From an uncultured Gammaproteobacteria bacterium (GTDB taxonomy: Bacteria; Patescibacteriota; Patescibacteriia; Magasanikbacterales; UBA922), in assembly GCA_964447765.1 (NCBI GenBank), contig CAYUTO010000004.1, positions 93,790 to 157,789 of the forward strand: a stretch of DNA of 64,000 bases, written 5' to 3'. A model generated the notes under the pieces. That model saw nothing but the letters and a program-made list of their open reading frames with translations. It was not told where the DNA came from and did not search any database. Below, in pieces: positions 60,875 through 63,800 of this stretch; position 1 is the stretch's first letter; every line of letters begins with the position of its first letter. The position numbers and the translations under genes were made by a program.

Positions 60875-63800
60875 TCTGTAGTGCTCGATATATTAGTACA
60901 CCTTGGCTATTCACCTAGTGCCTATCAACGTCATAGTCTCTGACGAATCTCAAACGAATATTAATCTTAAGAATAGCTTCGCGCTTAGATGCTTTCAGCG
61001 CTTATCTATGCCGAACTTAGCTACCCAGCAATGCATGGCACACAACTGGTACACCAGAGGTTCGTTCTTTCCGGTCCTCTCGTACTAGGAAAGAGTTCTT
61101 TCAATATTCTGCGCCCACAGTAGATAGGAGACCGAACTGTCTCACGACGTTCTGAACCCAGCTCGCGTACCGCTTTAATTGGCGAACAGCCAAACCCTTG
61201 GGACCTTCTCCAGCCCCAGGATGCGATGAGCCGACATCGTACATGATTCCATACTTTCGTATGGGGTAGACTATATCTTCTTCTTGCTCTGGATCGTAGC
61301 TATCTTTACTTACAGTAAAGACGTGCATAATCTCAGTTTGACTCAGCAAGAGTCGGCGTGTTGCAATCTACGTTTTATAGTAGAAAGCCTCCCCTTTCGG
61401 GTCAGTCGTTACGGGGTCACCACGATGCGCAAAGCGCTATTCGTAGGACTTCCCACGGTATTGCCGGGTTGCCGGTGGGGCAACTGACGGGTTCACCGTT
61501 ATAAGCCGATATTTATTCTCACTATCTAATTTAATAATTTCGACGAAAAAATTTGGGAAAACAATCGCTTGTTATGCACCCCGATATGTTAAGGTGCCAA
61601 ACCGCGCCGTCGCTATGGACGCTTGGGCGCGATCAGCCTGTTATCCCCAGAGTAGCTTTTATCCGTTGAGCTTCCACCATCCTATATTGAATGGTCGGAT
61701 CACTAACTTCCACTTTCGTGACTGCTCGGGTGGTAGCCCTTGCAGTAAAGCCGACTTTTGCGTTTGCACGTCCAGCTCCGTTTCCATCGGAGCTAAGTCG
61801 ACCTTTGTAAACGCCTCCGTTATGATTTGGGAGGCAACCGCCCCAGTTAAACTACCCACCAGACACTGTCTCCCACACCCGATTCAGGGCATAAGATTAG
61901 GGACATCGCATTACAAGGGTGGTATCTCACCGGCGCCCGAAGGCTCCCACCTATGCTGAACAAGTAAAACAATGTACCAATGTCAAGTTGTAGTAAAGCT
62001 TCATGGGGTCTTTTCGTCTAACTGCGGGTACGTCGCATCTTCACGACACTTGCATTTTCGCCGAGGACATGGTCAAGACAGTCTCCACATCGTTATGCCA
62101 TTCGTGCGGGTCGGAACTCACCCGACAAGGAATTTCGCTACCTTAGGACGGTTATAGTTACCGCCGGCGTTCATCAGCGCTTCGGTTCAAGGCTTTGTAT
62201 TACTACTAACCTCTCCCCTTAACGTTCTGACACTGGCCAGGCATCACCCCCTATACATCCTCTTACGAGTTAGCAGGGAGCTGTGTTTTTGATAAACAGT
62301 CGCATGGAGTCTTTTGTTGACCTGATCTTACGATCAGGAGGCCTTATCCCGAAGTTACGGCCGCTTTTTTGCCTAGTTCCTTAACCATGTTTCTCTCGTT
62401 CGCCTTGGTCTTCTCGACCTACACACCTGTGTCGGTTTACGGTACAGTTTGGTATTGCCTAGCGTTGTGCTACTTTTCTAGGCACCCTTCAAGCTTGAAT
62501 TGACCTTACCCGGAGGCTTGGTCTGCCCCTTGCGGGACGTACATTACCTGAATACGTTCAAACCATATAAGATGCGCATAGCGCAACAAACAATACCAAG
62601 TGCAGGAATATTAACCTGCTCTTCCATCGGCTACGCCCCCTTGCGAGGGCCTCACCTTAGGATTGACTAACCCAGGGACGATTCTCGTGGCCCTGGAAAC
62701 CTTGTGTTTTCGGCGTGAAGGACTCTCACCTTCATTATTGCTACTTGTGCCTGCATTCTCTCTTCTGAACGCTCCACCAAACCTCACGGCTCAGCTTCAC
62801 TGCTGTTCAGAATGCTCCTCTACCACTGATCAACGTATAAATACGAGATCAATCCGCAGTTTCGGTATAACACTTAGCCCCGGTACATTTTCGGCGCGGA
62901 GACTCTTGACCAGTGAGCTATTACGCTTTCTTTAAAAGATGGCTGCTTCTAAGCCAACTTCCTGGTTGTTTGAGAATCAACACCGCCTTTTACACTTAGT
63001 GTTAATTTAGGGACCTTAAATGGCGGTCTGGGCTGTTTCCCTTTAGACTGTGAAGCTTAGCCCCCACAGTCTGACTTGTATACTCTTATAACTTTGGCAT
63101 TCGGAGTTTGATTGAGTTTAGTACAGTAAACTGCCTAAGACTCATCCAGTGCTCTACCACCAAAGCAAACATATACAGCTAGCCCTAAAGCTATTTCGAG
63201 GAGAACCAGCTATTACCGAGTTCGATAAGAATTTCTCTCCTATCCACAAATCATCCCCATGTGTTGCACAGCATGTGGGTTCGGTCCTCCCTTCGACTCT
63301 CGTCGAAGTTCAACCTGTTCATGGATTGCTCACCCGGCTTCGGGTCTACTATATGCGACTTAACGCCCGTTAAGACTCGCTTTCGCTGCGCCTCCAGACG
63401 TGTTAACGTCCTTAAGCTTGCCACATATAGTAACTCGCAGGCTCATTCTTCAATAGGAACGCTGTCACCCATATACCTAATAAAAGGTATAGGGCTCCAA
63501 CTCATTGTAAGCACACGGTTTCAGGATCTATTTCACCGCCCTTCCGGGCTACTTTTCACCTTTCCCTCGCGGTACTGGTTCACTATCGATCACTGTTAAT
63601 ATTTAGTCTTATCGCATAGTCGCGACGAATTCAGACGGAATTTCACGTGTTCCGCCCTACTCAGGAATATAACACCACGTAGTTCATACATTTCGCATAC
63701 GGGACTATCACCCGCTATGGTTCTCCTTTCCAGGAGTATTCTGCTATACATAAACTAGACGCAGCCGACATCACAGGTAGTCGACGCTATATCCTACAAC

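Follow-up and report, generated by a model that had tools for sequence, protein, structure and literature searches.

Results

The 23S rRNA gene and its insertion

The window, by which we mean the whole 64,000-nucleotide stretch of DNA that was analysed, carries at its edge a 23S rRNA gene and, downstream of it, a 5S rRNA gene (Table 1). A preliminary description of this DNA had proposed a CPR host; indeed, its GlmS is 96% identical to a protein from a Candidatus Magasanikbacteria MAG. Proteins of this contig recur unchanged in the Logan assemblies of SRR12712864 and SRR12712865. The 23S rRNA is split exactly between U2500 and C2501 by a 352-nt insertion, and apart from this the gene scores normally against RF02541. 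On the sense strand, GGCACCT (ending at 61592) is followed by TAACATATCGGGGTGC ... GGAATCATGTA (61591 down to 61240) and then by CGATGTCGGCTC (from 61239). Intron nucleotide i has window coordinate 61592 - i; for the rRNA we use what we take to be the E. coli 23S numbering, with A2503 within GAUGUC.

The boundaries of the insertion are exact. The consensus GGCACCUCGAUG is restored by a single pair of cut points. Nor can the boundaries slide, since the 5' exon ends in T but the intron in A, and the intron begins with T but the 3' exon with C. The two flanks are adjacent in the Rfam LSU model alignment, which runs up to GGCACCU and resumes at 2527 with CGAUGUC. Furthermore, an intron-less CPR allele (L009, from a Patescibacteria MAG) is continuous across the junction, with GGTTTGGCACCT followed directly by CGATGTCGGCTC. 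This allele and L054 were the only intron-less 23S alleles among the matches listed from a pattern scan of genome contigs (TTGGCACCT N{4,30} GGGTG), a pattern loose enough to return random matches. In the syntenic relative L245, from JGI 3300056850 (Ga0558718_00201), intron fragments lie scrambled around a rearranged helix H89, and on account of that rearrangement it was rejected as a clean intron-less allele.

The preliminary description had put an insertion at these coordinates and at position 2500, and had proposed alignment to intron-less 23S as a check; the comparison upholds the boundaries, the length and the site (L2500). It had also reported no homing endonuclease, and we agree: the insertion holds no notable ORF, and the longest one that overlaps it (82 aa) extends into the exon and has no Pfam match.

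Table 1: Features of the 23S rRNA locus and parts of its intron, in window coordinates.
Feature	Coordinates	Strand	Evidence and remarks
23S rRNA gene, intron host	60872..64000	-	5' end truncated at window edge; Rfam RF02541, 2158 bits, model positions 132-2925
5S rRNA gene, downstream of 23S (context)	60691..60797	-	Rfam RF00001, 80.7 bits
Group I intron at L2500, 352 nt	61240..61591	-	sequence; RF00028; covariation on 33 relatives
P1 5' exon strand, G2495-U2500	61592..61597	-	pairs with guide G11-C16; 6 pairs, 99.5% of cells paired (33 sequences)
Internal guide sequence, P1 part, intron G11-C16, GGGUGC	61576..61581	-	sequence, RNAalifold, covariation
Guide extension, intron A5-G10, AUAUCG, forms P10	61582..61587	-	pairs with C2501-U2506; 97.4% of cells paired
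P10 3' exon strand, C2501-U2506, CGAUGU	61234..61239	-	pairing to guide extension
P2 hairpin with GNRA (GCGA) loop, nt 17-34	61558..61575	-	compensatory changes in 7/7 pairs
A+U-rich P2-P3 linker, nt 35-82	61510..61557	-	no predicted helix (RNAalifold); missing in many relatives (A2)
P3 5' strand (nt 83-87) and P4-P5-P5a-P6 domain (nt 93-179)	61413..61509	-	RNAalifold, covariation
J6/7 and P7 5' strand, GUAACGACU, nt 180-188	61404..61412	-	conservation, covariation
P7.1 (CCC-GAAA-GGG, nt 191-200) and P7.2 (nt 204-229)	61363..61401	-	10/11 pairs compensatory
P3 3' strand, GCCGA, nt 235-239	61353..61357	-	covariation
P8 and extension, nt 242-309	61283..61350	-	14/16 pairs compensatory
J8/7 and P7 3' strand, AGAAGAUAUAGUCU, nt 310-324	61268..61282	-	conservation; Rfam alignment
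P9.0 (A325-U351, C326-G350), P9 hairpin (nt 328-343, GAAA loop), variable linker	61241..61267	-	register, covariation
Last intron nucleotide A352, omega position, normally G	61240	-	sequence, P9.0 register, relatives

A complete group I core

The insertion is a group I intron, a variant with a nucleotide other than G at omega. We file it as a variant because omega-G is nearly universal, yet one accepted group I intron is documented without it. The covariance-model search that the preliminary description had proposed gave a match to RF00028 over the full model (positions 1-253; window 61248-61564; E=3e-12) that is borderline, at 51.1 bits barely above the gathering score of 50; the intron of the syntenic relative L243 falls below, at 47.1 bits. 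A gathering-mode Rfam scan of 12 kb did not report the window intron.

The fold is supported by covariation. RNAalifold on 29 relatives recovers P1, P2, P3, P4, P5, P5a, P6, P7.1, P7.2, P8 and P9. The full structure from P1 to P10, including the P7 pseudoknot, P9.0 and P10, was drawn by hand and scored on an alignment of 33 relatives (A2), in which 94.8% of cells are paired, against 77.5% in shuffled controls and 34-41% in slid controls. Compensatory changes occur in 55 of its 90 pairs, with P5a and the P6 extension rich in them, and the observed pairing and covariation values were reached by none of 500 shuffles on any measure. Moreover, every invariant core column of A2 is present in the window intron. 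Exon identity was dropped as a measure of host diversity, being confounded by other introns in the flanks.

The guide of the intron specifies the junction exactly. P1 (GCACCU/GGGUGC) can be read directly in the window, with a U.G wobble at the 5' splice site between U2500 (61592) and G11, and P10 (CGAUGU/AUAUCG, 6 bp) is contiguous with it, so that nucleotides A5-C16 pair gap-free to the canonical ligated exons GCACCU+CGAUGU. The metagenome relatives (at least 120 loci) were retrieved with a pattern that required part of P1 and P10, and part of this pairing among them is therefore present by construction; P10 positions 5 and 6, outside the four-position search pattern, still pair in most relatives.

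The guanosine-binding site is canonical. P7 comprises A183-U324, a bulged C184, G185-C323, A186-U322, C187-G321 and U188-A320; these pairs are 100% paired, one of them covarying (A183-U324 versus U-A). The guanosine-binding G is G185 (61407), paired with C323 (61269), and the layout is that described for Tetrahymena P7 (PMC10020454). The J8/7-P7 segment AGATATAGTC is kept in essentially all of at least 89 distinct L2500 introns.

The class of the element, which the preliminary description had left unclear, is thus settled by a complete covariation-supported core: P1 to P10, the P7 pseudoknot, P7.1/P7.2 and consensus J6/7 and J8/7. The presence of P7.1/P7.2 between P7 and the P3 3' strand is typical of subgroup IA, and we call the intron subgroup-IA-like. 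The earlier judgement that it does not belong to group II was sound, as it starts with UAACAU rather than GUGYG and no group II model matches it in Rfam at E=10 or better. An RNase III-processed intervening sequence was also considered and rejected: the site lies in the central loop of domain V and at neither of the helix tips (25 and 45) that such sequences occupy, and the fold, a group I core, is not one long hairpin.

Relatives of 700-920 nt at this site encode LAGLIDADG_2 proteins (PF03161, E 1e-37 to 1e-43), the ORF of one of them (L152) lying in the P6 loop as judged against L131. Unlike these longer relatives, the window intron has no endonuclease ORF.

An A in place of omega-G

Judged from the sequences, the terminal A is real and stands at the omega position. 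Each of the 37 A-ending introns pairs omega-1 and omega-2 with nucleotides 2 and 3 following AUAGUC, in the combinations UAC/UGC...GUA (34 introns) and UAU/CAU...AUA (3 introns), which is a compensatory change from C-G to U-A. The G-ending relatives (GCG, GUG, UUG) have the same P9.0 register, and it is that of the P7 extension in Tetrahymena (PMC10020454).

The trait is widespread. Among the matches listed, A is the final nucleotide in 37 of 89 distinct L2500 introns, and these 37 form one diverse clade with six G-ending members interspersed. The terminal GUA occurs in independent assemblies from many samples. Four syntenic relatives, whose Lgt is 73-88% identical, share it as well, in introns that have diverged in sequence and length (339-413 nt) and carry compensatory substitutions in their P9 helices. 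The preliminary description had recorded the terminal A instead of omega-G, while allowing that its own boundary reading might be wrong. The oddity is genuine; a misread boundary does not account for a trait conserved in a clade.

The pocket that would receive omega is unchanged. GACCCCGUAACGACU and AUAGUC are identical in A- and G-ending relatives, and GACCCCGTAACGACT (J6/7-P7) is invariant or nearly so in both. Once the clade's own G-ending members are taken into account, omega is the single column that separates the two kinds of intron. The G-binding pocket in P7 being identical, no compensation was found there. Changing the Tetrahymena omega-G to A is reportedly strongly deleterious to exon ligation unless the pocket G-C pair is changed too, and it is this offsetting change that is absent here. 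A-ending introns have a slightly longer P1 and P10 (p=0.0002 and 0.03), a difference that we discount because the statistics ignore phylogeny. As an internal control, the same loci hold introns at further 23S sites, and nearly all of these have U at -1 and G at omega.

Discussion

We infer that this intron is spliced, and autocatalytically. In the most likely account, splicing follows the normal two steps with a non-canonical omega-A. The pre-23S rRNA would fold to bring exon G2495-U2500 and the guide GGGUGC together as P1, placing the U.G wobble at the cleavage site, and free guanosine bound in the canonical G185-C323 pocket of P7 would attack after U2500. The 3' exon, C2501-U2506, would then pair as P10 with AUAUCG, immediately 5' of the guide, and the 2-bp P9.0 would put the last intron nucleotide into the same pocket. 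Attack by the 5' exon after A352 would restore GGCACCU-CGAUG. The nucleotide delivered to the unchanged pocket would be A352 and not G, and the second step would thus presumably depend more heavily on P9.0 and P10 for positioning and tolerate weaker binding of A. Taken as a whole, this account is probable: an ORF-less, subgroup-IA-like group I ribozyme intron at L2500 of a Candidatus Magasanikbacteria 23S rRNA gene, descended from a mobile family encoding LAGLIDADG_2 homing endonucleases and spliced in two steps with omega-A.

Canonical omega-G chemistry would be retained if G350 of the terminal GUA were the true omega-G, leaving an extra UA between U2500 and C2501 and a mature 23S rRNA that reads GGCACCUUACGAUG. 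A G does stand two positions before the end of most A-ending introns (GTA in 33 of the 36 from metagenomes, among the matches listed). The three that end in AUA, however, lack a G there, and in them the P9.0 partner of this position has changed from C to U; the G is thus acting as a pairing base of P9.0 rather than as omega. The gap-free pairing of the guide to the canonical junction leaves no space for UA. Moreover, A- and G-ending introns with identical exons are interleaved in one clade, and this reading would require two extra nucleotides in some close relatives and not in others, within the universally conserved peptidyl-transferase loop. We regard this reading of the 3' end as extremely improbable. 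A decaying intron in a non-functional rRNA gene, or an error of assembly or sequencing at the terminal A, is just as hard to credit: the scrambled locus of L245 shows that decay or rearrangement can happen there, but the GUA ends recur in independent assemblies, many samples and the four syntenic relatives, and the window intron retains an intact invariant core within an otherwise normal 23S gene.

Whether the insert leaves the RNA by splicing at all bears on a suggestion of the preliminary description, that it might be a retained expansion segment; alternatively, RNase III-type excision might occur with no ligation and leave the 23S rRNA fragmented. Bacterial precedents exist, among them the case that gives Everett et al. 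1999 its title, 'An unspliced group I intron in 23S rRNA', and RNase III-processed intervening sequences are discussed in PMC11270868. The site here is not a helix tip such as H25 or H45 but the single-stranded core of the central peptidyl-transferase loop, which makes a retained 352-nt insert implausible, and the guide specifies the exact canonical junction. Catalytic core, guide, P9.0 and P10 have been kept with compensatory changes across diverged relatives, which would be unexplained if the ribozyme were unused, and PMC11270868 argues that group I insertions around the peptidyl-transferase centre must be correctly spliced. The suggestion did not hold up, and we consider an unspliced insert very unlikely.

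A ribozyme that is efficient in the first step only is somewhat easier to envisage, though still unlikely. Exon joining would then need help from the host, in the form of a maturase or chaperone, or would proceed by hydrolysis of the 3' splice site and subsequent ligation by a protein. The A would be tolerated because the RNA would no longer have to bind omega. In favour of this, the pocket is unchanged although omega is A. In other CPR loci a few introns at L1931 end in A (L183, L192, L228), apparently in U (L131) or in C (L144), hinting at a relaxed requirement in CPR hosts, and a gene of the LigT/2'-5' RNA ligase family adjoins the 5S-23S genes in two relatives (L243, L247). Against this, there is strict retention of P9.0 and P10, whose role is to place omega and the 3' exon for ligation by the RNA; the window has no LigT homologue at the corresponding place, and the Coxiella omega-A intron reportedly self-splices in vitro. 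The LigT-like neighbour was dropped as a component of the system, the window ORF at 59640-60209 being unrelated to LigT.

For two-step splicing with omega-A, the use of a 3' splice site lacking omega-G could possibly be explained by accommodation of A in the G pocket or by P9.0/P10 positioning, perhaps with host help. There is about an even chance that CPR 23S genes harbour a large and stable group I clade in which omega has changed from G to A with the pocket unchanged, and hence natural ribozymes that use such a site. The scattered non-G termini at L1931 suggest that the relaxation may extend to CPR rRNA introns generally.

In annotation, introns are delimited by omega-G, which is regarded as an invariable rule of group I splicing. 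Requiring a final G at intron boundaries would lead to wrong annotation of such rRNA genes, a point relevant to CPR rRNA phylogeny and primer design; a Rfam gathering threshold lying right at the score of the family (47-51 bits) is a further weakness of annotation. A natural clade with A and an unaltered pocket offers a ready sequence set for studying how the second step tolerates a non-G nucleotide. It also raises a question for biochemists: could slower exon ligation pace ribosome maturation in slow-growing CPR bacteria?

Comparison with known introns

Group I introns reportedly occur in CPR 23S rRNA genes. In the survey of Tsurumaki et al. 2024 (PMC11270868), which reports 222 ORF-less group I insertions in 23S genes, the introns share with ours the host group and the clustering around the peptidyl-transferase centre. 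They show the same mixture of ORF-less and LAGLIDADG-encoding versions, and the window intron fits this population. The survey reports the LAGLIDADG_2 family mainly at 16S sites, whereas in relatives of the window intron it is found at 23S L2500. Position 2500 is neither listed there by name nor mentioned in the supplement, and we found no mention of the terminal nucleotide. Literature searches on omega-A, Cbu.L1917 and CPR intron splicing returned nothing relevant.

The subgroup IA introns Twort orf142-I2 (phage), T4 td and cyanobacterial L2593 share with the window intron a short P5 region, P2, P7.1/P7.2 and GNRA loops on P2 and P9; P7.1/P7.2 have been described for the L2593 and Twort introns (PMC1995217). 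These introns end in G, however, and their insertion sites and hosts differ.

A 3' terminal A is reportedly also found in an engineered Tetrahymena intron with an altered nucleoside-binding site (Been and Perrotta 1991). That omega-A is said to work through a pocket G-C changed to A-U, whereas the pocket of the window intron stays G185-C323. The only omega-A precedent that we know of is Cbu.L1917 from Coxiella burnetii, which is said to combine a terminal A with a canonical pocket, to self-splice, and to belong to subgroup IB2, as against the IA-like window intron. The title of Raghavan et al. 2007 (J Bacteriol 189:6572; cited in PMC11270868) states that one Coxiella 23S intron 'lacks the canonical omegaG', and to the extent of that title it is, like ours, a bacterial 23S group I intron lacking omega-G. 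The sites differ, L1917 in one and L2500 in the other. Furthermore, Cbu.L1917 is a single species-level case, whereas at L2500 most members of a diverse clade have the A, with vertical conservation within a lineage.

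Results

The peptidyl-transferase sequence of the 23S rRNA gene is interrupted exactly where the preliminary description placed the break. In sense orientation, GGCACCU runs to 61592, 352 nt follow (61591 to 61240), and CGAUGUCGGCUC continues from 61239. The comparison with intron-less 23S proposed there bears this out: a CPR allele (L009) reads uninterrupted GGTTTGGCACCT|CGATGTCGGCTC across the site, and the flanks of the insertion map to adjacent positions of the Rfam LSU model. The bases at its two ends are not the same, which fixes the boundaries of the insertion. We found no meaningful ORF in the intron; the longest, 82 aa, continues beyond it into exon sequence and matches nothing in Pfam.

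Coordinates of the interrupted gene and its intron
Feature	Position	Strand	Remarks
23S rRNA gene	60872-64000	-	5' end cut by window edge; 5S gene follows
Group I intron in 23S	61240-61591	-	352 nt; A352 = 61240

The group I covariance search that had been suggested succeeded. Taken alone, the intron matches the Rfam group I model over its full length (51.1 bits, E=3e-12), a borderline result given the gathering score of 50. Gathering-mode scans of 12-kb and 20-kb stretches reported neither window 61240-61591 nor L243:13173-13533, the intron of a close relative, which scores 47.1 bits alone and falls below that threshold. A survey that sorts rRNA insertions by the Rfam threshold will thus fail to classify some of this family.

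Since the match is borderline, we sought independent structural support. RNAalifold on 29 ORF-less relatives recovered P1, P2, P3, P4, P5, P5a, P6, P7.1, P7.2, P8 and P9. A complete structure of the window intron was then written by hand, now also covering P9.0, P10 and the P7 pseudoknot, and its pairs were counted on an alignment of 33 sequences. Paired cells reached 94.8%, against 77.5% in the shuffled control and 34-41% in slid controls; 55 of 90 pairs carry compensatory changes, and none of 500 shuffles reached any observed measure. Helices P7.1 and P7.2 separate P7 from the P3 3' strand, an arrangement that marks subgroup IA and is likewise known from the L2593 and Twort introns (PMC1995217).

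GlmS shares 96% identity with its counterpart in a named MAG of Candidatus Magasanikbacteria, which places the host in this CPR group. Relatives of the intron were sampled from metagenomes, with hosts mostly unknown, by scanning for exon GGTTTGGCACCT followed by guide-like RTYGGGGTG, a pattern that itself imposes part of P1 and P10. Nearly all of the at least 120 matches listed are true insertions at the L2500 site (between U2500 and C2501), and they include at least 88 distinct complete introns of 257-919 nt. Long members encode LAGLIDADG_2 endonucleases; in one (L152) the ORF sits in the P6 loop, as judged against an ORF-less relative (L131). The window intron derives from this endonuclease-encoding family as an ORF-less form.

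Sequence comparison places A352 at omega, the last intron nucleotide, which is normally G. Four lines of evidence converge: the guide, the P9.0 register, breadth and vertical conservation. Guide nucleotides A5-C16 pair gap-free with GCACCU+CGAUGU, the canonical ligated junction, so the 3' splice site must lie directly before C2501. P9.0 (A325-U351, C326-G350) follows the P7 3' strand AGUC and paired U324, in the same register as the 2-bp P7 extension beside omega-G in Tetrahymena cryo-EM structures (PMC10020454). Among the matches listed, this register is common to all 37 A-ending introns; three of these end AUA rather than GUA and have U, not C, as the P9.0 partner, a compensatory change. Relatives that end in G (GCG, GUG, UUG) share the register.

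A terminal A is found in 37 of 89 distinct L2500 introns among the matches listed. By neighbour joining, A-ending introns form one diverse clade with six interspersed G-ending members, and a second clade is entirely G-ending. The lgt...5S-23S neighbourhood is shared by four relatives of the window organism, with Lgt 73-88% identical. At L2500 these syntenic loci carry diverged introns of 339-413 nt with compensatory substitutions in P9, and all four end GUA. Other sites in the 23S genes of the same loci (L1917-like, L1951, L2449, L2593, L2604) served as an internal control: almost every insertion mapped there can be delimited by a U at position -1 and an omega-G.

The guanosine pocket is unchanged. 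Whichever base an intron ends in, A or G, its P7 strands are GACCCCGUAACGACU (C184 bulged) and AUAGUC; G185-C323, which binds guanosine, and the positions next to it are therefore canonical. A column-by-column search that ignores kinship found no column other than omega separating the two groups, counting the A clade's G-ending members.

Among the G-ending introns nested in the mostly A-ending clade, several (L139, L157, L204, L195, L133, L210) finish in ..CCGACAG|CGAUG. The additional CGACAG, loosely like the 3' exon start CGAUGU, comes in L139 after sequence otherwise resembling the usual ..GAAGU(A) ending. It may mark how a terminal G was regained.

At L1931, some introns of other CPR-like loci end ..UUAUGUA|AGCG (L183, where guide CGCU|GCCUUAG fixes A at omega), ..GACGAAA|AGCG (L192) and ..GUGAAUA|AGCG (L228), apparently in U (L131), and in C (L144, whose relatives end ..AUCUG). 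Non-G termini are thus not restricted to L2500; only there are they a conserved majority.

Another syntenic relative, L245 (13530-13710, minus strand; JGI 3300056850 Ga0558718_00201; Lgt 80% identical), is uninterrupted between U2500 and C2501. Just upstream, 27 nt of helix H89 are replaced by ~178 nt: intron-like sequence that corresponds to nt ~30-114 of the window intron, an H89-tip-like AGCGTCCA...GCGACG, and the P7/P7.1 segment of the intron, ACTGACCCGAAAGGGGAG. Pairing of GUUUUCCC with GGGGAGAC could form an 8-bp helix at the base of the entire block. In folding, the region shows no advantage over shuffled sequence. Against the Rfam LSU model the locus scores ~320 bits less than neighbouring relatives. 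It may represent a pseudogene, a chimera or what is left of an intron after rearrangement.

Two syntenic relatives have a 2'-5' RNA ligase/LigT family gene (PF13563) between lgt and 5S-23S (L243:11498-12025, L247:11277-11795); the window ORF in the corresponding place (59640-60209) is unrelated to it and has no Pfam match. The window also holds a tRNA-Ile gene with anticodon TAT (35083-35157, minus strand), which is unusual in bacteria, where AUA is normally read by a modified CAT anticodon.

Discussion

The best-supported reading of this anatomy and conservation is ordinary two-step group I splicing with A as the delivered nucleotide. Guanosine would attack after the U2500.G11 wobble, P10 and P9.0 would bring the terminal A to the pocket, and exon ligation would restore GGCACCU-CGAUG. 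A host factor might be needed for the second step, which we consider unlikely.

If G350 were the true omega, UA would be left in the rRNA; AUA-ending introns, P9.0 covariation and the contiguous guide all speak against this, and we give it hardly any credence. Decay or sequencing error is just as improbable, the same ending being seen again in independent assemblies. Retention of the insertion, or RNase III-type fragmentation, is only slightly less remote: either is implausible inside the central peptidyl-transferase loop and leaves the conserved catalytic core unexplained.

Group I introns, both ORF-less and LAGLIDADG-encoding, are already known to surround the peptidyl-transferase centre in CPR 23S genes (PMC11270868), so the L2500 intron as such belongs to a known kind. 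That survey uses Rfam classification and approximate boundaries, and we found no discussion of the terminal intron nucleotide in it. Our literature searches returned nothing on a diverse clade keeping omega-A; as far as we could determine, one that maintains it with an unchanged pocket is undescribed. The sole documented case that we traced, Coxiella Cbu.L1917, is by its paper's title a natural group I intron without omega-G. This is one isolated case, its site is not L2500, and it is said to belong to a different subgroup. Been and Perrotta reportedly engineered, in 1991, a Tetrahymena intron in which omega-A was paired with an A-U pocket, whereas the window intron combines omega-A with the canonical G185-C323.
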